From a virus, in IMG/VR virus record IMGVR_UViG_3300023504_000004, positions 16,857-80,856 of that record: 64,000 bases of DNA. One strand, written 5' to 3'. Both the position numbers and the translations under genes were made by a program. Positions 16,799 to 42,215 of this stretch are shown here, piece by piece. The notes under the pieces are model-generated. The model made no database searches. It saw nothing but the letters and a program-made list of their open reading frames with translations, and was not told the DNA's origin. Numbering within the stretch: the first letter of the stretch is position 1; each line of letters opens with the position of its first letter.

Positions 16799-17134
16799 AT
16801 GATAAAAGTATCAAGCAAATCAGGGAAATCAATAATTGCAGAAGCAATTCAGAAATATAATGGAGCAGTAATTTATTCGTATTATGACGAACTATTACCG
16901 TTTGAAAATGGCTATCATGTCAATTCCGGCAAATATTCTGTTGATGAGTTTTGTGAGGGAATAATGATCGATATTAAAGAAAAGGTAGAAGGAAATGAAG
17001 GGTCGCCATTAAATATGGTAATCATTTATACAAATCTTTCAGATATCTCGGAAATCGATACTTTATACGCATATGCCGAAAGACTTGAAGAGGTTGAAAA
17101 ATTGGTTGGTACGGTAGTAGTAATGACACAATAA
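16799..17134 (+). CDS. Hypothetical protein
   Basis: ORF preceded by 'tttcataaggagaaataaat'. Confidence 0.5.
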   Translation: MIKVSSKSGKSIIAEAIQKYNGAVIYSYYDELLPFENGYHVNSGKYSVDEFCEGIMIDIKEKVEGNEGSPLNMVIIYTNLSDISEIDTLYAYAERLEEVEKLVGTVVVMTQ

Positions 17135-17947: not shown

Positions 17948-17986
17948 GCTCAAAATGGAGAATAACTATTGGAAAGGAGAGATCTT

Positions 17987-18742
17987 ATGGCATTGGCAGT
18001 TGTAAAAAATGAAAAACAGGACGTGATCCAGCTTAAGGTTGTAAATGGAACCGGTCGGTTTACAAAAGACGGACGATGGATCCCGAACCCACAGAGCGAA
18101 GAGCGTTGGGTTGATCCGATTAGGGATAAGGCAGATGTGGAGCGCTGCATCGAATACCTGAAGCTCAAAGTCCAGATGGCGCATAAAAAGAACGAGAAGT
18201 TTACATCGAAGAGAAACTTGATGCTGTTCGTTATAGGAATCAACATCGGATTACGAGTGTCTGATTTGTCTGCACTCAAGTGGTCAAACTTTTTCGAGAA
18301 GGACATGGAGACATTCGTGAATGCTCGAAATAAAAAGGAAAAGAAAACCGGAAAGAAAAAACTGGTGATTCCAAACGAGTCGATCCAGAATGTGATTACA
18401 TGGTACTTGAATGAAACCGAAATTCAGCCGGAATACGACGCACCGGTATTTGTGTCTTATAATACCGGGAAAGCAATTGGACGCGATCCGGTGGAGAATA
18501 TGATGAAGGACCTGCAGTATCATCTAAAGCTCAAAGGCAGCTATAACACGCATAGCTTGCGGAAAACCAATGCGTATCAGAAATATATGATGTTGGTCGA
18601 GGCGGGAGATCCATTAGCTCTTGCCAAGATTCAGCACAGTCTTAACCACCGGAATACAAGCGAAACACTTAGATATTTAGGATTGACAAGAGATGATGAT
18701 ATTAAAGACCAGTTCGCATTGGACGACTGGTGGGATATGTAA
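17987..18742 (+). CDS. Small tyrosine recombinase (phage-integrase family, catalytic domain only)
   Basis: Internal ATG of ORF 17969-18742 after 'ggaaaggagagatctt'. Motifs 'GLRVSDLSALKW' (box I Arg), 'HSLRKTNAY' (HxLR) and 'LNHRNTSETLRYLGL' (C-terminal catalytic Tyr region). Confidence 0.75.
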   Translation: MALAVVKNEKQDVIQLKVVNGTGRFTKDGRWIPNPQSEERWVDPIRDKADVERCIEYLKLKVQMAHKKNEKFTSKRNLMLFVIGINIGLRVSDLSALKWSNFFEKDMETFVNARNKKEKKTGKKKLVIPNESIQNVITWYLNETEIQPEYDAPVFVSYNTGKAIGRDPVENMMKDLQYHLKLKGSYNTHSLRKTNAYQKYMMLVEAGDPLALAKIQHSLNHRNTSETLRYLGLTRDDDIKDQFALDDWWDM

Positions 18743-31066: not shown

Positions 31067-31654
31067 ATGGGAGGTTTTGCACCTAAAAAAGTTGAGAAAT
31101 TAACCGATGAGCAAAGACAACTTGTAGAAGATAACCATAACTTAATTTACAAGGTTTTGTACGACAAGCATCTTGATATAGATGAATGGTATGATATTGC
31201 AGCAATTGCATTGTGCAACGCAGCTAAATTGTATGACGCAAACAGAGATATTCAATTTAGTACATATGCGTATATATCAATCTTTAATGGAATTTGTAGG
31301 GAATATGCATTAAGCTTGGCAAATAGAAAAATCCCTAAAGATAAAATTTATTCCTTAGATTACGAATTTGGAGATGGAAATGAAACATACACAATTAAAG
31401 ATTATTATGTGGATGGATATTCATTTGAGAACGATGTTGTAACGAAAGAACGTTTTTTAAGTGGTTTAAAACAGATGCCGAGTCAAAGAGATAGGGAAAT
31501 AATTGTATTGATATCAGAAGGATATACATATGAAAAAGTAGGAAAAATATATAACATTTCGCGAGAACGAGTTAGACAAATTATTCAAAGGTATGCGTGT
31601 TATATAAACCACAAGATAAAAAAGAATAAAGGATATAATAGGAGTGTTGCATGA
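31067..31654 (+). CDS. Sigma-70-family RNA polymerase sigma factor (regions 2 and 4)
   Basis: Region-2-like 'DIAAIALCNAAKLYDANRDIQFSTYAYISIFNGICRE' and region-4 HTH 'YEKVGKIYNISRERVRQIIQR'. SD 'taggggaataaaaatat'. Confidence 0.65.
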   Translation: MGGFAPKKVEKLTDEQRQLVEDNHNLIYKVLYDKHLDIDEWYDIAAIALCNAAKLYDANRDIQFSTYAYISIFNGICREYALSLANRKIPKDKIYSLDYEFGDGNETYTIKDYYVDGYSFENDVVTKERFLSGLKQMPSQRDREIIVLISEGYTYEKVGKIYNISRERVRQIIQRYACYINHKIKKNKGYNRSVA

Positions 31655-32079
31655 CAAAATACATTCTGATTTTAGTGACCTTCTGTGTGGTCCTGTGGGC
31701 TTGGTTAATACATCACCAACGACAATTTCCACGATACGAATGGTACAAACCTTTCAGAAGGCGTCTGAGGGCTTCAGTAGACGAATATTGTAAGGTAAGT
31801 AAAAATCTTCGCTCAGTTAAAACTCTGATTTCAAAGACCGAAAATGATCTAAGTGTGTTCGATATCACATCAGCTCGTCGGATAATCATCCAAGAAAATC
31901 TCGATAAATTAAAAGAAAAGTGCAAAGATTTAGAGAATAAATATTATGAAATCTCTAATGAAATTATATTGCTCTATAACGAACATGAGATGGAAATTGA
32001 GAGCGAGGAAAATATGTTAAATCCTCAGATGTTGGAGCTAAGAGATTTGTGGCGTATTTACACAGAGAATAAATTATAG
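31651..32079 (+). CDS. Hypothetical protein with N-terminal transmembrane helix
   Basis: ORF with a 4-nt overlap to the sigma factor gene. N-terminus MTKYILILVTFCVVLWAWLI. Confidence 0.5.
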   Translation: MTKYILILVTFCVVLWAWLIHHQRQFPRYEWYKPFRRRLRASVDEYCKVSKNLRSVKTLISKTENDLSVFDITSARRIIIQENLDKLKEKCKDLENKYYEISNEIILLYNEHEMEIESEENMLNPQMLELRDLWRIYTENKL

Positions 32080-32107: not shown

Positions 32108-32926
32108 ATGATAGGGAGGACTTTCGGGCTTCTAACAGTAAAAAGTGTATCTGAAAGGTCTACATCAAAACGTCTTATATATGTATGTGACTGTAAATGC
32201 GGCACAAAGGATGTAGAGGTGTCTGGCGATAAATTAAGAAGTGGGTGGACAAAAAGTTGTGGCTGTTTGGTGAAAAAAAGAGCGAGTGAAATTCATAAAA
32301 AAATTAATACATATGATATCACTGGTCCATATGGTATTGGAATATGTTCAAATAGTGACACAAAATTTTTCTTTGATCTGCAAGATTATGAAAAGATTAA
32401 AGATTATTGTTGGATGGAATTGAGGAATGGATATATAGCAACATCTTTGAATGATGGAAGATTTATATATTTACATCGATTAGTCATGAATGCAACAAGT
32501 GGACAAATTGTCGATCATGTGCAGCATAATCTTTATGATTGTAGAAAAGAAGAATTACGTATTGGAACACAAAGTAATAATATGATGAATTTATCTATGC
32601 GAATAGATAATACATCTGGAACCACTGGAGTTTGGTTGGATAAAAGGAACAATAATTGGGTCGCTGAAATTAAGGTAAACAAGGAGAAAATAAATTTGGG
32701 ATCTTTTGTTAATAAAAATGATGCTATAAAAGCGCGTAGAAATGCAGAAGAGAAATATTTTAACAATTGGTCATATAAAAATTCTACTGGTCTTTACAAT
32801 AATGAAAATTTGGAGGTCACAACGAAGTGTCCGTATTGTAACTACATTCCGGATTGTGATGAGTATACCTGCGATGGATGCGAAGTCTATGAAGATTTCT
32901 TGGATGATATAAATGATTTTTATTGA
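32108..32926 (+). CDS. HNH homing endonuclease with AP2-type DNA-binding domain
   Basis: 'IDHVQHN...R.ELR..T.S.N' HNH core, and 'TTGVWLDKRNNNWVAEIKVNKEKINLGSFVNKNDAIKARRNAEEKYF', an AP2-like domain typical of phage HNH endonucleases. Confidence 0.7.
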   Translation: MIGRTFGLLTVKSVSERSTSKRLIYVCDCKCGTKDVEVSGDKLRSGWTKSCGCLVKKRASEIHKKINTYDITGPYGIGICSNSDTKFFFDLQDYEKIKDYCWMELRNGYIATSLNDGRFIYLHRLVMNATSGQIVDHVQHNLYDCRKEELRIGTQSNNMMNLSMRIDNTSGTTGVWLDKRNNNWVAEIKVNKEKINLGSFVNKNDAIKARRNAEEKYFNNWSYKNSTGLYNNENLEVTTKCPYCNYIPDCDEYTCDGCEVYEDFLDDINDFY

Positions 32927-32980: not shown

Positions 32981-33145
32981 ATGAATCCAATTTTAATAGG
33001 AGGAATTTTATTATTGGCGGTCGGATTATGGTTCTTGCTGGCATTTGCATTTAAACCAATTGGTGCTTTTATTGAGCATATATGGGGAGATGCAATCGAT
33101 GCCATGAATGATAAAAATAACAAAGAAGAGGAGAAAAAGAAATGA
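32981..33145 (+). CDS. Small membrane protein (54 aa)
   Basis: Unlisted ORF with SD 'ttagaggaggcgatgct'. Hydrophobic N-terminus, K/E-rich tail. 4-nt overlap with the SPFH gene. Confidence 0.4.
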   Translation: MNPILIGGILLLAVGLWFLLAFAFKPIGAFIEHIWGDAIDAMNDKNNKEEEKKK

Positions 33146-34074
33146 GTAAAAGAGGATTATTAGGCGGAGTTACATTAGGCGTATTAATTATCGGATCAGT
33201 AGCAGTTGGGCTTGCTTGTACAGAAAAGATCCCAGCCGGTTATGTTGGGGTTGTATACAACGGTTTATCTGGCGGAGTAGATGGAGAAGTGCTTACTCAG
33301 GGATGGCACTTTGTCGCACCGACCAAGAAAGTTACTAATTATTCCATTGGAATTGAACAGTCGTATCTTACATCTGAAGATAAAGGAGATTCACCAGAGG
33401 ACGAGAGTTTTTCGACTCCAACATCTGACGGCAAATCTTTAAAGGTCGATCTGGAGTTTTCTTATAAATTCGATGCAGACAAGATTGCAGATACATTCGT
33501 AATGTTCAAAGGTCAGTCTGGGAAATCTATTAAGGACACCTTCATTAAGCCGAAAATGAGAGCATGGACTCAGGAAGTTACTGCGAAGTATCCGGTGACG
33601 GATGTATTTGGTGATAAAAGACAGGAACTTAATGAGGCTCTGGATGTATATCTGAAACAGAAATTTGAACCGTATGGCATTATCATTGACACTGTGAACT
33701 TTACAAATATTTCCACTGATACCGAGACATCTGCAGCAATCCAGAAGAAAGTAACTGCGCAGCAGGAACTTGAACTCGCAAACATTGAAGCAAAAACGGC
33801 GAAAGTTCAGGCCGATAAGGATAAGGAAGTTGCCCTGATTGCGGCAGAGCAGGAAAAAGAAAAGGCAGCTATCGTTGCCGAACAGAAGAAGATCCAGGCA
33901 GAAGGTGAAGCCGAAGCTACAAGAATTAAGGCACAGGCAGAAGCTGAAGCGAACCAGAAGATTGCAGCATCTCTTACACCGGAATTGATTCAGAAGCAGA
34001 AATATGAAAAATGGAATGGCGCACTTCCAGATGTTATGGGGAATAACACTCCAATCATTAATATGGGAGAGTAG
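33142..34074 (+). CDS. SPFH/band-7 (prohibitin/stomatin/HflC-like) membrane protein
   Basis: N-terminal TM helix (LLGGVTLGVLIIGSVAVGLA), an SPFH body, and a C-terminal Ala/Glu/Gln/Lys-rich coiled coil (AQQELELANIEAKTAKVQADKDKEVALIAAEQEKEKAAIVAEQKKIQAEGEAEA). Confidence 0.7.
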   Translation: MSKRGLLGGVTLGVLIIGSVAVGLACTEKIPAGYVGVVYNGLSGGVDGEVLTQGWHFVAPTKKVTNYSIGIEQSYLTSEDKGDSPEDESFSTPTSDGKSLKVDLEFSYKFDADKIADTFVMFKGQSGKSIKDTFIKPKMRAWTQEVTAKYPVTDVFGDKRQELNEALDVYLKQKFEPYGIIIDTVNFTNISTDTETSAAIQKKVTAQQELELANIEAKTAKVQADKDKEVALIAAEQEKEKAAIVAEQKKIQAEGEAEATRIKAQAEAEANQKIAASLTPELIQKQKYEKWNGALPDVMGNNTPIINMGE

Positions 34075-34081
34075 TGATTAA

Positions 34082-34234
34082 ATGTTTGAAAATATTTTAA
34101 CTTGGCTCTTACTTGCTGTGATAACATTTGCAGTAATAATTTTAATATCGTGGGTGAGTATATACACGATTCTTGATATTGTTTCTCGTTTGAAGAAATA
34201 TAAGAGCGGAGACAATTGGAGAATAAAACTTTAG
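34082..34234 (+). CDS. Small membrane protein (50 aa), possible NfeD-like partner of the SPFH protein
   Basis: Unlisted ORF 8 nt after the SPFH stop. Sequence MFENILTWLLLAVITFAVIILISWVSIYTILD... Confidence 0.35.
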   Translation: MFENILTWLLLAVITFAVIILISWVSIYTILDIVSRLKKYKSGDNWRIKL

Positions 34235-34495: not shown

Positions 34496-34709
34496 AATCG
34501 ATTTATGTCAAGCTACTATGCTGGATGACTATGCAAATCTTATTGTAAAAGTGATCCAAAAAGATATCGAAGTAAAGCGTAATAAAATTATTAAGGCACT
34601 AATCGAGGTCGGGTTTTATAGATTAGCATTATGTATGCCGGAAGCGGTGTTACATGACGGTTATGAGGATTGGGTTGAGTTAGTAAAGTTGGTGATTCAA
34701 GATGATTGA
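34488..34709 (+). CDS. Hypothetical small protein
   Basis: ORF overlapping the previous stop. Confidence 0.45.
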   Translation: MLRIDLCQATMLDDYANLIVKVIQKDIEVKRNKIIKALIEVGFYRLALCMPEAVLHDGYEDWVELVKLVIQDD

Positions 34710-34875
34710 AGCGTTTGTAAAAGCACTTACAGTAAATCTGGCAGTTACAGCCATATGGTATGCATCAGAGTGGATGCAATTCGGAGAATTACAATTCAAT
34801 AGGGAGTGCGATAACATCGTAAACACTATTTATCTGTTTGTTTTGTGGTACTTATTTTATAAAAAAGAACGATGA
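34702..34875 (+). CDS. Small membrane protein (57 aa)
   Basis: Unlisted ORF overlapping the previous stop. Two hydrophobic segments. Confidence 0.3.
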   Translation: MIEAFVKALTVNLAVTAIWYASEWMQFGELQFNRECDNIVNTIYLFVLWYLFYKKER

Positions 34876-37659: not shown

Positions 37660-38520
37660 ATGCCAGTACATGATGATCTTGGTCTTCGCATGAAGACTTT
37701 TTATGAAGAAATTCCAAAAACAAAATTAATGCGGCGCTGCCCTGTTGCGATCAGAATTGACGGAAAAGCTTTTCACACGTTTACGCGCAAATTCCAGAAG
37801 CCATTTGACGAGATCTTGATCGAATCTATGCAGGAAACTATGAAATACCTGTGTGAAAATATCCAGGGATGCGTCTTAGGCTATACCCAGTCTGATGAGA
37901 TCACATTGATCTTGGTTGATTATAAGAAGCTGACATCTGTAGCCTGGTTCGACTATGAAGTTCAGAAGGTTTGTAGTATTGCGGCTTCCATGGCAACTAT
38001 GGCATTTAATAGAAATTTTAGAGATACAATTGATTTAGCTTACGATCAGGAATTTCGTGATTTAGGCTTAAATAAAGAACCAGATAAGAGTCAGGAAGAT
38101 GATTATAATAAAAAGTTTGAAGTATTAGAGAAAAAGTATGACAAGTATTATTCTCAAATCGATAAGGCGATGTTTGACGCCCGTTGCTTTAGCATTCCAA
38201 AAGAAGAAGTAGCAAACCTGATCTATTGGCGGCAGCTTGACGCCACACGCAACTCTATTCAAATGGTTGGACAAGCCAATTTCTCACATAAGGAACTTCA
38301 GAATAAGTCTTGTAACCAGATTCAGGATATGTTAATGGTTCAGAAAAGCATTAATTGGAATAATTTCCCGACTTATCAGAAGAGAGGAAGCTGTTGTATT
38401 AAAGAGGAGAAAATGATTGAAGACCAGATGAGAAGTAGTTGGATTATCGATACAGAAATTCCAATCTTTAAGGGTATTGATAGGGATTATGTTGAGAAAC
38501 GAATTCTTATTGGAGAATGA
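37660..38520 (+). CDS. Thg1-like protein (tRNA-His guanylyltransferase family 3'-5' nucleotidyltransferase)
   Basis: N-terminal 'CPVAIRIDGKAFHTFTRKF' matches the Thg1 signature (RxDGrxFxxFt). Total size matches Thg1/TLP. SD 'aaattggaggattaaaatt'. Confidence 0.6.
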   Translation: MPVHDDLGLRMKTFYEEIPKTKLMRRCPVAIRIDGKAFHTFTRKFQKPFDEILIESMQETMKYLCENIQGCVLGYTQSDEITLILVDYKKLTSVAWFDYEVQKVCSIAASMATMAFNRNFRDTIDLAYDQEFRDLGLNKEPDKSQEDDYNKKFEVLEKKYDKYYSQIDKAMFDARCFSIPKEEVANLIYWRQLDATRNSIQMVGQANFSHKELQNKSCNQIQDMLMVQKSINWNNFPTYQKRGSCCIKEEKMIEDQMRSSWIIDTEIPIFKGIDRDYVEKRILIGE

Positions 38521-38552
38521 TAAAATTACGCTTTCAACAGGAGAATATATAA

Positions 38553-38888
38553 ATGGCAACATATGAAAGACTGTACAATGAGAAGGGTGAGTTGGCAGTA
38601 TTGTATGGAAGTTTTTGGAGTACCGACGATGCTGAATTGCACAATTTAAAAGGTGAAGAAGCGTATCGGCTGGCTCTGGATAAAAGAGTTATAGAGTTCT
38701 GGCAGTCCAACAAAGATTTCTACGACATGTTGGACTTCTTAAAAAGTATTGGATACAACTGGCCAAGTGGAGAACCGGATAGACAAAAATTAGCTTGGAT
38801 TCCCAAAGGGACACCATTTTATATTCATACATATGACGGTGATGAAACAATTGAGACACCAGAAAGTTGCAACATGATTATAGCGTAG
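38553..38888 (+). CDS. Hypothetical protein
   Basis: ORF preceded by 'ctttcaacaggagaatatataa'. Confidence 0.5.
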   Translation: MATYERLYNEKGELAVLYGSFWSTDDAELHNLKGEEAYRLALDKRVIEFWQSNKDFYDMLDFLKSIGYNWPSGEPDRQKLAWIPKGTPFYIHTYDGDETIETPESCNMIIA

Positions 38889-38898
38889 GAGTAGAAAC

Positions 38899-39081
38899 AT
38901 GATATATATAGCATATGCTGTAGCATGGATTGCCACCGCTGTAGCAGTAATTTTCGGAATTAAATTAACAGGGTCAGCATGGTGTTTATGGGCTTTCTTT
39001 TTTCCGGCTGGCATTAGTTTATCTCACAACAAAAAAACTGATAATAACGATGAGGCGGACAGACATGATAAAGATGAATAA
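38899..39081 (+). CDS. Small membrane protein (60 aa)
   Basis: Two hydrophobic helices (IYIAYAVAWIATAVAVIFGI ... WCLWAFFFPAGISL). SD 'gtaggagtagaaac'. Confidence 0.45.
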   Translation: MIYIAYAVAWIATAVAVIFGIKLTGSAWCLWAFFFPAGISLSHNKKTDNNDEADRHDKDE

Positions 39082-39282
39082 AATAAGCATTTCAGGAGGT
39101 GTAACAGCACGAAAGTAATTCAAAACAATTATAAAAAAGAAGAGAATAAAAGAGTAGAGAAAAATACTTTTATTACATATTGTGACCAGTGTAATTCTGA
39201 GCTTGAAATCACAAAAGAAGATACTCATATTGGTTGGCTCGGTGCTCGATTTGTAACCTGTCCATGCTGTGGAGAAGAATCT

Positions 39283-39648
39283 ATGGTTGAAGAGCTGCAA
39301 GGCATTACTCTTACAAAAGATAATATCCAGTTTCCTGCGCATTTTTACAGAACAAAAACAGGGAAAATTGGTGTTAAGGAGGTTACAAATCAGAAAGTCG
39401 TAGATGAAATAAAGCGAGGAATTGAGTGGCTACGGAGTGAAAAGAATGAATATTATTGGTTTACAAAATATGGAGACCTCTTTCTAATTATATTTAAACA
39501 CGATGGAGGCGGAAAATATAACGTGTTGGTTACGAGGGACTGGTATGAAACAGATATCCCATTCGAAGAAGATGATTACAAATGGGATGAGAAAAGGCTT
39601 TCAGAAGATGATGACGACATGGGGTGGGGAGGAGATGATAATTTATGA
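39283..39648 (+). CDS. Hypothetical protein. The ORF is open upstream to 39082 and there encodes a zinc ribbon, but no canonical start codon is present.
   Basis: Listed ORF from the first ATG. The in-frame upstream stretch (39082-39282) encodes ...YCDQCNSELEITKEDTHIGWLGARFVTCPCCGEES... It follows the SD 'tttcaggaggtg' (39088-39099) but contains no ATG, GTG or TTG. Confidence 0.45.
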   Translation: MVEELQGITLTKDNIQFPAHFYRTKTGKIGVKEVTNQKVVDEIKRGIEWLRSEKNEYYWFTKYGDLFLIIFKHDGGGKYNVLVTRDWYETDIPFEEDDYKWDEKRLSEDDDDMGWGGDDNL

Positions 39649-41258
39649 CGGATTTAGAAACTTGGTTCCTTGATTTTGGCGATGATCATATTTTCAGATT
39701 ATACGATCCATTTTCAATTCGCGTAGTGGAAAAAGTGCGAATTAATAATATGATTGAACTTCCAAACAAAGATGTACTAATTGAATATTCGGAAGTTAAT
39801 AGCGAAGAAGATTTTAATGCAGAATGGGGTAAAGCACCTTTATGTTATAAAAACTCAGTGAGATCAAATTGGAGTATCATCCGCATGATAATCAATTTTG
39901 TTCAAATGCAACTGCCTTACCAGCAACCGAGTAAAGGAGAAAAAATGAGTTGGAATCCTGTGCTGAATAAATTTATTGAAATAAAAAATACATATAAAAA
40001 TAAAATTGGCGAACCAACCTATTCTTATAAATCTGGCTATACAGATGAATCAAAAACATGTCTCGAGCGATGGGTTGAAGAGTTAATTGAAAAATTCCCA
40101 GATAAGCAATTCCAGCAGTACGAAGAACTTCTTTCTTGCTTGGAAATGAATCAATGGAATCAGTTTTTGATAATTAGATATGCCAGATATAGTAATGTAT
40201 ATGACGGTGAGGTCGAGTCTTCTGGCGAAGATTTTTGGGACAGATATAGCGGATTTTATAGAGAATGCAGGAGTGTTGTTATTGACGTTGTAAATGATAA
40301 AATTGTATTAGCACCATTTAAGAAATTTTTTAACATCAATGAACTTGAAGAAACTCGTCTGGAGAATGTAGAACGCAGAATTGCTACCGCGACAAATGTT
40401 GAATTTTCTAATAAACTTGATGGCTCAATGCAATCGGCAACGTGGTATGATGGTCGGATTATTATGGCTGGAAGTCAGGCAATTGATCCAAGTAATTCAT
40501 GGAGATTGCAGGAAGGTTATAGAATGCTTGATTTGCGTCCAGGTTATAAGAGAATGCTGACCGAACACCCTGGTCTGACTTTTATTTTTGAATATATTTC
40601 GCTTAAAGACGCTCATGTTGTTAAATATAAAAAAGAGCAAGAGGGACTATATTTGATTGGCGTGAGAAACAATAATGACGGCAGAGAGTTACCGTACCGT
40701 TCTGTTTTAGATGTCGCATATGTTTATAATATTCCAACAACGGAGATTTTTGATAAAACATTAGACCAGGTAATGGCAGAACTTGATGAAAAATCTTCTG
40801 ATGAAGCAGAAGGGTTTGTCATTAACATTGATGGATATAAGGTTAAAGTCAAGTACAATGACTACGTTCATATCCATAAAGCTTTATCTAAATCATCCTC
40901 AATAAATCTAATCATTAAGTCTATTGCAGACGATACGTTCGACGACCTTCTTTCGAAACTTCCAGAAGCTTATCATGACAATGTAAAAAGAGTTGCAAAT
41001 ATTGTTTTTAATTATATTTGTGACACTGAGAATATCATTAGAAAATATTATAACGAAGCGCCAAAGAACGATAAAAAGAAATTTATGATTTGGGTCAATT
41101 CTAATGTTCCCAAAAAATATCGCGGATTCTGTCGATCTTTGTATCTCGGAGATCCAATTAATGTATTAAAAAAACATAATGGTTCTGGCTATTTAAAACT
41201 TAAAGATATGGGTATCGAGGATTATGGAAAACTATTTGTAAACAATGAGAACGAATAA
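39645..41258 (+). CDS. ATP-dependent RNA ligase (Rnl-type nucleotidyltransferase)
   Basis: Motif I 'SNKLDGSMQSA' (KxDG). Motif IV/V 'EGFVINIDGYKVKVKYNDY' (EGxV...KxK). 537 aa. Start overlaps the upstream stop (ATGA). Confidence 0.65.
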   Translation: MTDLETWFLDFGDDHIFRLYDPFSIRVVEKVRINNMIELPNKDVLIEYSEVNSEEDFNAEWGKAPLCYKNSVRSNWSIIRMIINFVQMQLPYQQPSKGEKMSWNPVLNKFIEIKNTYKNKIGEPTYSYKSGYTDESKTCLERWVEELIEKFPDKQFQQYEELLSCLEMNQWNQFLIIRYARYSNVYDGEVESSGEDFWDRYSGFYRECRSVVIDVVNDKIVLAPFKKFFNINELEETRLENVERRIATATNVEFSNKLDGSMQSATWYDGRIIMAGSQAIDPSNSWRLQEGYRMLDLRPGYKRMLTEHPGLTFIFEYISLKDAHVVKYKKEQEGLYLIGVRNNNDGRELPYRSVLDVAYVYNIPTTEIFDKTLDQVMAELDEKSSDEAEGFVINIDGYKVKVKYNDYVHIHKALSKSSSINLIIKSIADDTFDDLLSKLPEAYHDNVKRVANIVFNYICDTENIIRKYYNEAPKNDKKKFMIWVNSNVPKKYRGFCRSLYLGDPINVLKKHNGSGYLKLKDMGIEDYGKLFVNNENE

Positions 41259-41285
41259 CAGGGAACAAGAAAAAACGAGGTAAAA

Positions 41286-42215
41286 ATGACAATCAAAGAC
41301 ATTGAAACAAAACTTTCGCCTAAACCATCACTCTATGTTATGTGCGGGCTTTCCGGAAGTGGAAAATCCACCATTGCAAAAGAGTATCAGAAAAAGATTC
41401 CTGGTAGCGTGATTATCTCTTCTGATGAGATTAGAGAGGAATTGTGTGACGGAAACCGTGCGGATCAGAGTAAGAACGACGAAGTGTTTAGAGTATTTCA
41501 CGATAGAATCCGAAAAAATTTGGAGAAACATAAGAGTGTAATCGTAGATGCAACCAATATTACAATGAAGTCCCGTAGAGCTATTCTGGGCAAAGTAAAC
41601 GGTCTGGATATTAACAAGATTTGCCTGATCGTTCCGAAACCATACGAGCAATGCCTGGTTGACAACAAACAGCGTGAGTGGCCGGTTCCTGATGAGGTGA
41701 TTGAACACCAGCGCAGTCGGTTCCAGATTCCATTCAAGGAGGAAGGTTGGACGGAGATTAGAATTGAGAGTGGATTTAAGGATCGGCCATATAGATTCGA
41801 TGAGATGATGAAAGGGTATGATCAGAAAAGTCCATATCATGCCTTTACTTTAGACGAGCATTGTCAACTTGCGGCTGACATGTTCTTCGACATCAAAGGG
41901 TATAGACAGCCATGGTATGCTGGAGCACTACTGCATGATGTCGGAAAACTGTTTACGCAGACTATCGATGAAAACGGTGTAGCTCATTACTACTCGCATG
42001 AAAACGTCGGCGCATATGAGATTCTATCATTAAAGCCGAATGAAGAGGATATTGTAGACATTTGTTTCCTGATTAATTATCACATGCTACCGTTCAGTTG
42101 GAATCTTAATTGGCGCGAGCCGACGAGAACTATGAAGAGATGGCAGCGTAGGTTTGGAGAAGAGAAGTATCAAATGTTGTTAGACTTCCATGAGTGTGAT
42201 ATGGCTATGGCGTAG
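41286..42215 (+). CDS. Polynucleotide kinase (P-loop) fused to an HD phosphohydrolase domain
   Basis: Walker A 'CGLSGSGKST', Walker B-like 'VIVDATN'. C-terminal HD motifs 'LDEH', 'LLHDVGK', 'YSHEN', 'INYHM'. SD 'aaaacgaggtaaaa'. Confidence 0.65.
   Translation: MTIKDIETKLSPKPSLYVMCGLSGSGKSTIAKEYQKKIPGSVIISSDEIREELCDGNRADQSKNDEVFRVFHDRIRKNLEKHKSVIVDATNITMKSRRAILGKVNGLDINKICLIVPKPYEQCLVDNKQREWPVPDEVIEHQRSRFQIPFKEEGWTEIRIESGFKDRPYRFDEMMKGYDQKSPYHAFTLDEHCQLAADMFFDIKGYRQPWYAGALLHDVGKLFTQTIDENGVAHYYSHENVGAYEILSLKPNEEDIVDICFLINYHMLPFSWNLNWREPTRTMKRWQRRFGEEKYQMLLDFHECDMAMA

Follow-up and report, generated by a model that had tools for sequence, protein, structure and literature searches.

A prohibitin-like SPFH protein and its co-inherited membrane microprotein: a candidate two-gene membrane cassette in a large gut phage

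Introduction

Two kinds of described system lie closest to the phage locus presented in this work. In NfeD-SPFH operons, an SPFH gene is paired with a gene encoding a membrane protein of the NfeD family, which is defined by an OB-fold domain of roughly 60-90 residues and whose short members have a multi-pass N-terminal part. In the prohibitin PHB1/PHB2 and HflK/HflC cages, the SPFH scaffold is built from two paralogous subunits, and we know of no microprotein partner for either of them. A further point of reference is provided by phage proteins such as T4 Imm/Sp, T5 Llp, TP-J34 Ltp and lactococcal Sie2009, which are encoded by small membrane-protein or lipoprotein genes outside structural and lysis modules, act at the host envelope and, to our knowledge, in no case include an SPFH scaffold.

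At least 705 of the deposited phage genomes also carry an SPFH gene, among them those of the well-studied N4, the Kayvirus therapy phages and AR9, and a 2026 paper states that the reason for their occurrence in phage genomes "remains unclear" (PMC13239085). Our searches of the openly searchable literature returned no functional study of phage SPFH or phrog_200 proteins; what they returned was genome-annotation remarks and one speculation on the Sec-dependent secretion of Tgl. Here we describe an SPFH gene of a large gut phage that lies between two genes for very small membrane proteins, and examine which parts of this arrangement are retained across phages and what they may do.

Results

Locus organization and genomic setting

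The window, by which we mean the whole stretch of 64,000 nucleotides analysed (positions 16,857 to 80,856 of IMG/VR record IMGVR_UViG_3300023504_000004), derives from a large gut phage and represents its replication and nucleotide-metabolism region, with genes for a sigma factor, a methyltransferase, a DNA polymerase, a helicase and a primase. Within it, three co-directional ORFs of 54, 310 and 50 aa occupy positions 32981-34234 of the + strand, confirming the arrangement and coordinates given in the initial annotation:

32981..33145, + strand: upstream microprotein, 54 aa, single-pass membrane protein (ORF call)
33142..34074, + strand: SPFH/Band_7 protein, prohibitin-like, 310 aa (Pfam, PHROG, AF2, Foldseek)
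34082..34234, + strand: downstream single-pass membrane protein, 50 aa (ORF call)

The first two ORFs share four nucleotides (ATGA, 33142-33145), in which the TGA of the 54-aa ORF overlaps the ATG of the SPFH ORF, suggesting that microprotein and SPFH protein are translated together; the gap from the SPFH stop to the start of the 50-aa ORF is 7 nt. SD-like purine-rich stretches precede the 54-aa ORF (aGAGGAGG) and the SPFH ORF (GAGGAG), with a weaker one (GGGAGAG) before the 50-aa ORF. The pair lies on the same strand as its neighbouring genes, which include one for an HNH endonuclease. Promoter and terminator sites were no commoner than in shuffled sequence, with none flanking the module on the + strand; we regard the module as belonging to a long run of co-directional genes and not as an insulated moron. 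No DNA-level relatives of the module were found by blastn against 50,697 phage records, and the informative similarity searches are those at the protein level only. Relatives lie on IMG/VR contigs of 65-216 kb which, together with the gene content of the window, bears out that the SPFH protein is phage-encoded.

The SPFH protein

The middle ORF encodes a prohibitin-like SPFH scaffold of 310 aa. The protein matches Pfam Band_7 (PF01145), the profile proposed in the initial annotation as a check, over residues 29-221 (E=4.8e-24, 85.8 bits against a cut-off of 23.6), as well as phrog_200 over residues 5-308 (E=1.1e-65, 223 bits). In the AF2 model of the monomer (pLDDT 78.5), a TM helix (residues 3-25) is followed by an SPFH core (27-191), after which comes an 84-residue helix rich in A/E/Q/K (194-277), so that the reading of an SPFH/band-7 protein with a TM anchor, an SPFH core and a long AEQK-rich coiled coil holds by Pfam, AF2 and Foldseek alike. 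The C-terminus carries an EKWNGxxP tail, and the low confidence of the model over residues 294-310 would fit a segment that becomes ordered only in an oligomer. The best PDB sequence matches are to prohibitin 1 and 2 (E=5e-6 to 2e-4), and the top Foldseek match of the model is likewise a prohibitin (8rrh, E=2.7e-14), with further matches to erlin1/2, HflK/C, stomatin and QmcA over approximately 300 aligned columns; flotillin was also found. Homologues are numerous (4988 in the protein database at E<=1e-10), while no protein of a deposited phage is more than 43% identical; relative to the related locus L002, dN/dS is 0.037/0.39.

The sequence around the end of the anchor (...V-G-L-A-C26) does not fit the lipobox pattern [LVI][ASTVI][GAS]C, and true lipoboxes (LTSC, LTGC, AAGC) are confined to family members from Gram-negative phages (N4, Ro1, Maja and phiE125). 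Two K/R residues precede the TM helix of the window protein and the net charge after it is 0; SPFH N-termini are K/R-rich, and the distant Gram-negative phage homologues are periplasmic lipoproteins. The partner microproteins, by comparison, have K/R-rich stretches after the TM helix. By the positive-inside rule and the lipoboxes of distant homologues, the predicted orientation is N-in/C-out for the SPFH protein and N-out/C-in for the microprotein.

The flanking microproteins

The upstream 54-aa protein has a short uncharged N-terminus and one hydrophobic helix at approximately residues 4-22 (mean Kyte-Doolittle 2.7), followed by an amphipathic helix and a tail of mixed charge (K/E), and carries the motif W-F-L-L...F-x-P-I-G. 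It matches no family in Pfam, PHROG or NCBIfam and is represented by 8 unnamed clusters in a database of 5.8 billion proteins. Its pattern of conservation is that of a real gene under purifying selection: dN/dS relative to L002 is 0.15/1.02, indels are in-frame, and the reading frame, the TM helix and a W-x-L...F-x-P-x-G motif are kept across 32 distinct nucleotide sequences. The ORF is conserved in some 84 related loci of its clade, where it always adjoins the SPFH gene, and is present also in L003-L005, in which the downstream gene differs. Furthermore, hhalign shows the protein to be homologous to its counterparts in the MT835474 clade (98%, E=2e-13), which in turn link it to Bacillus phage AR9 g180 and to the B4 BCB4_0202 family. 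On the strength of these comparisons, the 54-aa protein is best described as a dedicated, co-inherited partner of the SPFH protein.

The 50-aa protein, which has a single hydrophobic helix and ends in a basic tail (SRLKKYKSGDNWRIKL), is common only to the window, L001 and L002, among which the TM helix and a C-terminal SRLKKYK..D.WRIK are conserved (dN/dS relative to L002, 0.47/2.09). The same slot downstream of the SPFH gene holds an unrelated 63-aa TM protein in L003-5 (dN/dS between L003 and L005, 0.014/0.164), a 209-aa lipoprotein in L006-16 and a 564-aa protein in L017-79. The position of the ORF is not unusual, since such a downstream ORF lies beside 14% of control genes, and a downstream small ORF as a general feature was rejected, being found in 1 of 14 SPFH clusters against that same proportion of controls. 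Judged by its conservation, the 50-aa gene is real, but a lineage-specific accessory in a variable slot. The two mini-ORFs were initially seen as bracketing the SPFH gene; both are genes, and the hydrophobic ORF overlapping the SPFH start is a conserved companion, whereas the downstream one is not.

As a separate observation, the 50-aa protein and the downstream ORF of Enterococcus phage ECP3 both have a terminal ...DNW... motif. BLASTP returned no alignment between them, and the idea that they are related was dropped despite this common ending.

Pairing across phages

Within the clade of 84 loci, partner and SPFH gene always occur together, while the preceding gene belongs to 18 families and the following gene to 11, and the pairwise identities of partner and SPFH protein are correlated (Spearman 0.81). 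Beyond this clade, a hydrophobic ORF of 20-120 aa ending at or overlapping the SPFH start was found in 11/14 SPFH clusters compared to 26/255 control genes (binomial P=3e-9), where clusters were defined at 60% identity within lineages of our own choosing and are phylogenetically non-independent. Annotated examples with the partner upstream of the SPFH gene are:

N4: gp19-gp20
AR9: g180-g181
Kayvirus: MbpV-MbpS
B4: BCB4_0202-0201
B13: gp44-45
phiST1: 34-33
Maja: 114-113
phiE125: gp44-43
SEP9: 045-044

In Enterococcus phage ECP3 and haloarchaeal HCTV-10 the partner is instead located downstream of the SPFH gene, and it is missing from several streptococcal temperate phages (L200, L206, L208) as well as from L211 and L089; in these phages the SPFH protein is evidently able to work alone. 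On this sequence evidence, most of the 19 sampled phage lineages have the microprotein gene as a conserved partner of the SPFH gene.

The partners do not, however, form a single family. While hhalign shows the partner families of Firmicutes phages to be homologous to each other, it detected no homology between these and the partners from Gram-negative phages, which have two TM helices (the N4 gp19 family). One partner family for all lineages was accordingly rejected, and the term "partner" may cover different things.

The surroundings of the pair also vary. It lies among replication or nucleotide-metabolism genes also in B4, B13, AR9, ECP3 and phiST1, for example near genes for dUTPase and RecU in B13 and for DNA polymerase in B4. 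Envelope-type neighbours are found as well: in relatives, the downstream genes encode a lipoprotein or small TM proteins, and the neighbourhood in Maja and Ro1 includes membrane or secreted proteins. In Kayvirus and SEP9 the pair adjoins the endolysin gene. In N4, the gene adjoining gp19-gp20, gp18, is annotated "superinfection exclusion". Carriers of the SPFH family include strictly virulent phages (N4, Herelleviridae, AR9) and also haloarchaeal tailed viruses.

Discussion

Alternative explanations

That the mini-ORFs on either side arose by chance in AT-rich DNA, or act as mere translational leaders, and are devoid of protein function, would agree with the frequency of small hydrophobic ORFs beside control genes (10% upstream, 14% downstream) and with the lack of a match between the window mini-proteins and any described family. 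We nevertheless regard it as highly improbable: the upstream ORF shows the constraint described above, its profile homology extends to Bacillus phages and gene callers have called it in 8 independent clusters, while the downstream frame and C-terminal motif are kept in L002 despite saturated synonymous sites. As little can be said for a classical SPFH-NfeD operon, in which the mini-proteins would be degenerate NfeD proteins acting with a stomatin/QmcA-type scaffold. The initial annotation had called the arrangement NfeD-like, and in gene order the likeness stands, as both mini-genes adjoin the SPFH gene in the same orientation and a membrane protein is encoded immediately upstream, overlapping the SPFH start; Foldseek also finds QmcA of the QmcA-YbbJ (SPFH-NfeD) complex (8z5g, E=8e-10). 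Membership of the NfeD family is refuted, however, by the profile search that the same annotation had proposed: PF01957 matches neither window mini-protein (E<=0.1), and 10 proteins encoded at the equivalent position in other phages likewise gave no match (E<=1). Moreover, only some 30 residues follow the TM helix, so that the OB-fold domain cannot fit; each mini-protein has a single hydrophobic segment, as opposed to the multi-pass part of short NfeD proteins; and the best structural matches of the scaffold are prohibitin, erlin and HflK/C rather than stomatin or QmcA. We give this explanation a very small probability.

Explanations that accept the pair as a viral device carry more weight. 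An HflK/C-like cage might enclose host FtsH or another membrane protease and alter its choice of host or phage substrates, with the microprotein serving as adaptor or inhibitor in the way that lambda CIII inhibits FtsH. The fold and the predicted extracytoplasmic topology agree with those of HflK/C and prohibitin, which cage AAA+ proteases; homologues are labelled "HflC" or "high frequency of lysogenization" in their sources; and since many Firmicutes lack HflK/C, a phage copy could supply the function in such a host. Yet the "Hfl" names are transferred annotations rather than tests, and identity with HflC was rejected, as the protein scores 13.9 bits on the NCBIfam HflC equivalog (TIGR01932) against a cut-off of 134.4. 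No second SPFH paralogue was found in the window or in the ORF listings and annotation tables of the loci read individually, where HflK/C and PHB1/2 are hetero-oligomers of two paralogues. The family is, in addition, common in strictly virulent phages, for which no lysogeny decision exists, and occurs in haloarchaeal tailed viruses, whose hosts, as far as we know, lack FtsH. A specific action on FtsH is in our view the less likely course, and we consider this explanation rather unlikely. Lysis timing would have the mini-proteins act as holin- or antiholin-like proteins that an SPFH ring corrals, or have the ring corral the true holin, and so set the time of permeabilization. Both mini-proteins are holin-like in layout (a small TM protein with a charged, predicted cytoplasmic tail), N4 gp19 resembles a two-TM class II holin in size and topology, and the endolysin gene beside the pair in Kayvirus and SEP9 points to lysis rather than to protection or exclusion; for MbpV, a holin-like layout was remarked on by the authors who described it (PMC7150955). 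Against this, no endolysin, holin or structural gene lies near the module, whose neighbours encode a sigma factor, an HNH endonuclease, a methyltransferase and replication proteins, and no endolysin was found among the scanned window genes; in B4, B13, AR9, ECP3 and phiST1, too, the pair is placed among replication or nucleotide-metabolism genes. Neither window mini-protein matches a holin family in Pfam or PHROG, and the best match overall, that of N4 gp19 alone to Phage_holin_3_6, is not significant (E=0.038). Lysis timing is, in our judgement, distinctly unlikely.

A proposed membrane cassette

We favour, and rate at slightly better than an even chance, the explanation that two genes of the locus make up a phage membrane cassette, to which the lineage-specific gene is an addition, and that their products form an SPFH-microprotein cage that conditions the host membrane in the early or middle phase of infection. 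Like prohibitin, erlin and HflK/C, the SPFH protein would build an oligomeric ring or cage, here on the outer side of the host's cytoplasmic membrane. The TM helix of the microprotein would lie against the SPFH anchors or within the ring that they form, and its charged tail would provide the complex with a cytoplasmic face, absent from the SPFH protein itself. The two proteins may be in contact, of which their adjacency and co-inheritance are indirect signs. Expression would be early or middle, which is favoured because of the replication and nucleotide-metabolism context in the window, B13 and B4. More speculatively, the cage may fence off patches of host membrane at this stage and thereby protect or condition the envelope, either by blocking the entry of DNA from later phages or by preserving the seal and the energised state of the membrane up to programmed lysis. 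The 50-aa protein would be one of several interchangeable envelope proteins encoded beside the cassette.

As to function, membrane protection or superinfection exclusion seems to us somewhat more probable than control of FtsH or of lysis timing. A role in defence or counter-defence, raised in the initial annotation, finds no support: PADLOC-DB returned 0 defence families at E<=0.1 for all three proteins, and membership of a known defence system was rejected. The initial interpretation is upheld in part, for the SPFH identity and the reality of the mini-ORFs, and set aside for the NfeD and defence proposals. A broader proposal, which we advance tentatively and consider unlikely, is that the pair represents a self-contained viral membrane cage distinct from both NfeD-SPFH and HflK/C-FtsH, with the microprotein as obligate co-subunit or client, serving tailed viruses of Gram-positive, Gram-negative and haloarchaeal hosts as a general and hitherto unrecognised guard or seal of the infected-cell membrane, for example through exclusion or through integrity until lysis.

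An SPFH protein with a non-NfeD microprotein offers a concrete two-component unit for study in tractable phages, and enlarges the set of described SPFH assemblies by a form with a microprotein partner. Should superinfection exclusion, membrane integrity or lysis timing prove to be under the control of the pair, this would bear on phage therapy cocktails, because Kayvirus and Enterococcus phages carry the pair, and also on how SPFH cages in general select their contents.

Comparison with known systems

With the exclusion and envelope proteins T4 Imm/Sp, T5 Llp, TP-J34 Ltp and lactococcal Sie2009, the module shares no sequence relation; the likeness is that of small membrane-protein genes lying outside structural and lysis modules, and an exclusion activity would here be hypothetical. 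The resemblance to NfeD-SPFH operons (Pyrococcus PH1510-PH1511, B. subtilis YuaF-FloT and E. coli QmcA-YbbJ; 8z5g) is one of operon plan, an SPFH gene being paired with a membrane-protein gene in both, in the window with overlapping start and stop codons. The NfeD partners are roughly 140-450 aa in length, whereas the window partner has 54 aa, one TM helix and neither an OB-fold nor a ClpP-like protease domain, and the window SPFH protein is of the prohibitin/HflK type rather than the stomatin type of those operons.

PHB1/PHB2 and HflK/HflC provide the best sequence and fold matches over the full length of the protein (TM anchor, SPFH domain and coiled-coil helix), and the type-II topology predicted for it, with a non-cytoplasmic SPFH domain, would fit theirs. 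Unlike these two-subunit cages, the window has a single SPFH gene, whose product is presumably a homo-oligomer, and the predicted cytoplasmic N-terminus is only some 5-9 residues long before the TM helix. The phage SPFH protein has, in addition, an obligate-looking microprotein partner, which is known to us for neither prohibitin nor HflK/C. The closest relationship is with phrog_200 (N4 gp20, Kayvirus MbpS, Bacillus phage B4 BCB4_0201 and AR9 g181), variously annotated "lipoprotein", "band 7", "prohibitin family" or "HflK/C". The first of these names implies a lipoprotein, whereas the window protein has a signal anchor (G-L-A-C) without a true lipobox, and its partner microprotein, unlike the SPFH protein itself, belongs to no PHROG. 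By HMM, the window protein is nonetheless a direct member of phrog_200, with equal length, equal domain order and a common C-terminal (E/N)KW(N/D)GxxP motif, and the SPFH genes of both carry a small membrane-protein gene at their 5' end.

Results

Three co-directional ORFs are present at 32981-34234, as the initial annotation described, and were delimited in the ORF listing as follows:

32981-33145, + strand: ORF-a, upstream microprotein of 54 aa, the partner (sequence MNPILIGGILLLAVGLWFLLAFAFKPIGAFIEHIWGDAIDAMNDKNNKEEEKKK)
33142-34074, + strand: ORF-b, SPFH protein of 310 aa
34082-34234, + strand: ORF-c, downstream protein of 50 aa, a single hydrophobic helix plus a basic tail

The stop codon of ORF-a (TGA) and the start codon of ORF-b (ATG) share an ATGA overlap, and 7 nt separate the ORF-b stop codon from the start of ORF-c. 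Purine-rich Shine-Dalgarno-like stretches lie ahead of ORF-a and ORF-b, with a weaker one ahead of ORF-c. Scanning the + strand for consensus sites turned up nothing resembling a promoter or terminator that would bracket these genes, which therefore appear to belong to a long array of genes on one strand.

The SPFH identity of ORF-b was upheld by Pfam (Band_7, E=4.8e-24; score 85.8 bits, cut-off 23.6), and profile searching placed it in the phage SPFH family phrog_200 (E=1.1e-65). Among proteins of solved structure, prohibitin 1 and 2 come nearest in sequence (E=5e-6 to 2e-4), followed by QmcA. The AlphaFold2 model (pLDDT 78.5) bears out the proposed anchor, core and long helix: residues 3-25 form a TM helix, 27-191 the SPFH domain and 194-277 a helix of 84 residues, after which come a short helix (280-289) and a disordered C-terminus. 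In Foldseek this model aligned over ~300 columns with full-length cage subunits, best with prohibitin 8rrh (E=2.7e-14), then erlin1/2, HflK/C, stomatin and QmcA-YbbJ. ORF-b matched no PADLOC defence model, and is a typical representative of a phage family that is large and already known, though unexplained.

Two sequence features of this family were also observed. Cys26 (33217-33219), where the TM helix meets the ectodomain, is almost invariant across the clade of close SPFH relatives and has counterparts in Kayvirus MbpS, SEP9_044 and Enterococcus ECP3, where the lipobox is non-canonical; this cysteine may be the remnant of a lipidation site or serve as a functional thiol. A C-terminal (E/N)KW(N/D/K)G-x-x-P motif (34003-34032, residues 288-297) recurs in the B4, AR9, Kayvirus, SEP9, N4, Ro1, Maja and phiE125 homologues, while phiST1, ECP3 and vB_BcoS-136 end instead in KHGW(V/I) and the MT835474 protein in GWVTV. 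These differing motifs suggest that the presumed cage-closing tail may come in two subtypes.

Both mini-ORFs flanking the SPFH gene proved to be real genes, of which the upstream one is conserved across the clade and the downstream one is lineage-specific. In ORF-a a single hydrophobic helix leads into an amphipathic stretch and then a tail rich in K/E; the gene is present at every non-truncated locus of the clade. Across its 32 distinct nucleotide versions the reading frame is preserved, as is the motif M-N-P...W-[FL]-L-[LSC]...F-x-P-[ILVF]-G, with length varying through in-frame indels in the tail only. Against L002, a related locus with 95% SPFH identity, dN/dS was 0.15/1.02 for ORF-a and 0.037/0.39 for the SPFH gene. 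The two genes are adjacent in 84/84 loci, preceded by 18 and followed by 11 unrelated families, and their pairwise identities are correlated (Spearman 0.81); within mosaic surroundings, the two behave like a single cassette. A database of 5.8 billion proteins holds ORF-a in 8 unnamed clusters. ORF-a falls in no PHROGs family, and the small partner proteins of other phages are split there over separate families of unknown function.

The NfeD-like character attributed to these neighbours was not borne out: PF01957 matched neither window mini-protein at E<=0.1 (0/2) and none of 10 positional counterparts from other phages at E<=1. With ~30 residues after the TM helix, the mini-proteins are too short for the OB-fold domain that defines NfeD.

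ORF-c is a genuine, lineage-specific gene that the window shares with L001 and L002 only, with its TM helix and SRLKKYK..D.WRIK tail kept (dN/dS 0.47/2.09). At other loci its slot holds an unrelated 63-aa TM protein (dN/dS 0.014/0.164 between L003 and L005), a 209-aa lipoprotein or a 564-aa protein.

The window comes from a large phage and represents its region for replication and nucleotide metabolism, encoding a DNA polymerase, DnaB-like helicase, primase, RecJ-like exonuclease, exonuclease V/Dda-like helicase and methyltransferases; no structural or lysis proteins were found among ~30 window proteins scanned. Further genes are:

17969-18742, + strand: integrase-like tyrosine recombinase (phrog_216, E=5e-35)
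31067-31654, + strand: sigma-70-family factor, 1.3 kb upstream of the cassette (Sigma70_r4, E=2e-8; phrog_351, E=2e-21)
32108-32926, + strand: HNH endonuclease (phrog_99, E=1.7e-33)
34702-34875, + strand: 57-aa ORF, hydrophobic in parts, ~0.5 kb downstream of the cassette (phrog_20526, E=1.3e-4)
37660-38520, + strand: Thg1-like tRNA-His guanylyltransferase (phrog_4717, E=1e-88)
39645-41258, + strand: RNA ligase
41286-42215, + strand: polynucleotide kinase/ATPase

The HNH gene has a 142-aa gene (31651-32079) on its upstream side and the microprotein gene on its downstream side; because a homologue of the 142-aa gene directly precedes the microprotein gene in L002, the HNH gene appears to be a mobile homing endonuclease inserted next to the cassette. 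The last three genes form an RNA-repair-like cluster (37660-42215, + strand) that may counter host tRNA-cleaving defences. The 57-aa ORF may be a further small membrane protein of the same array, and the tyrosine recombinase is a hint that this large phage may be temperate or plasmid-like.

No DNA-level similarity to deposited phages was found. At the protein level ORF-b homologues occur in 705 phage records, every one below 60% identity, including phages of Staphylococcus, Bacillus, Enterococcus, Klebsiella, Escherichia (N4 among them) and Burkholderia, and haloarchaeal viruses. Gut metagenomes yielded 4988 matches at E<=1e-10, with close relatives (74-96% identity) abundant, and IMG/VR viral contigs carrying close relatives reach 216 kb. 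A few of these relatives occur in genomes or MAGs of Clostridia (Clostridium sp. AF27-2AA, Blautia, Christensenella). In the cultured Clostridium isolate (L087 4838-5772, NZ_QUFI01000001.1) a 56-aa partner gene is intact and the SPFH gene is broken into 103-aa and 216-aa fragments; this copy looks like a decaying prophage and points to Clostridia as hosts.

The partner survey covered 277 viral loci with an SPFH gene, for which five non-randomly chosen phage lineages served as seeds; the SPFH proteins were clustered at 60% identity into 14 clusters. A partner was defined, using a crude hydropathy measure, as a 20-120-aa hydrophobic ORF ending at or overlapping the SPFH start. Most members had one in 11/14 clusters, against 26/255 other genes of the same loci (10%; binomial P=3e-9, the clusters not being phylogenetically independent). 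Small hydrophobic ORFs downstream were not enriched (1/14 clusters versus 14% of controls).

Annotated phage genomes with a like arrangement: partner and SPFH proteins
N4: gp19, 68 aa, 2 TM; SPFH gp20
Bacillus AR9: g180, 50 aa; SPFH g181
Kayvirus A3R: MbpV, 102 aa; SPFH MbpS
Bacillus B4: BCB4_0202, 44 aa; SPFH BCB4_0201
Bacillus B13 (temperate): gp44, 46 aa; SPFH gp45
Streptococcus phiST1: 34, 58 aa; SPFH 33
Burkholderia Maja: 114, 71 aa; SPFH 113
Burkholderia phiE125: gp44, 49 aa; SPFH gp43
Staphylococcus SEP9: 045, 91 aa; SPFH 044

In Raoultella phage Ro1 an N4-gp19-like protein lies two genes upstream of SPFH, and in Enterococcus ECP3 and haloarchaeal HCTV-10 a 44-49-aa TM protein lies directly downstream, not upstream. 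Several streptococcal temperate phages, L211 and L089 (a proteobacterial MAG locus) have no partner at all. Profile-profile comparison related the window-clade partners to the MT835474 clade (98%, E=2e-13), and the latter to AR9 g180 (97%, E=1e-10) and the B4 clade (92.7%, E=4e-7). A single partner family extending to N4 was rejected, the 2-TM N4 family being unrelated in this comparison.

Discussion

The window carries a prohibitin-like SPFH protein and a co-inherited, non-NfeD microprotein whose stop overlaps the SPFH start, placed among early or middle-type genes. In all lineages examined 1-4 K/R residues precede the SPFH helix, and genuine lipoboxes (LTSC, LTGC, AAGC), found only in Gram-negative phage homologues, indicate that those homologues are periplasmic. 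Partner proteins have uncharged N-termini of 0-3 residues and usually several K/R just past the helix. From these sequence signals we infer N-in/C-out for the SPFH protein and N-out/C-in for the partner, which would make the microprotein tail the sole sizeable cytoplasmic segment of the putative complex. The SPFH protein would assemble as a ring or cage on the outer surface of the host membrane, and the partner helix would pack against or inside the ring of SPFH anchors.

We favour, speculatively, a role in protecting or conditioning the infected cell's membrane, whether by superinfection exclusion or by sealing until lysis. Virulent as well as temperate phages carry the module, and their hosts include Gram-positive bacteria, Gram-negative bacteria and archaea; in most lineages it is found apart from lysis cassettes, and often other envelope proteins surround it. 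These are the grounds for our preference. Three findings weaken the main rival, control of FtsH by the phage SPFH protein: the design has a single subunit, ORF-b fails the HflC equivalog model (13.9 versus 134.4 bits), and the family is present in strictly lytic phages and haloarchaeal viruses. A part in lysis timing is likewise speculative; the small proteins are holin-like in shape, and its only other support is that the pair adjoins the endolysin gene in Kayvirus and SEP9.

In N4 (L097 1374-2798, gp18-gp20) the gene directly upstream of gp19-gp20 is annotated 'superinfection exclusion, similar to P22 gp17', an annotation consistent with an envelope or exclusion role of the neighbourhood.

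In the open-access literature searched, phage SPFH genes appear only in annotation tables or brief remarks. They are mentioned in the T4-like phages 44RR, Aeh1 and RB43 (PMC1524935) and in Vi01-like phages (PMC10892097); in an N4-like phage the reason for their presence 'remains unclear' (PMC13239085), and Kayvirus MbpS and MbpV were noted as membrane proteins of adjacent genes, along with a speculation on Sec-dependent secretion (PMC7150955). The observation behind the initial annotation is confirmed and its interpretation partly supported; the element of which we found no earlier description in that literature is the conserved non-NfeD microprotein partner of phage SPFH proteins. The pair offers a clean handle for experiments. 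Its likeness to NfeD-SPFH systems is one of operon layout only. The N-in/C-out orientation predicted for the phage SPFH protein is that of HflK/C, prohibitin and erlin.
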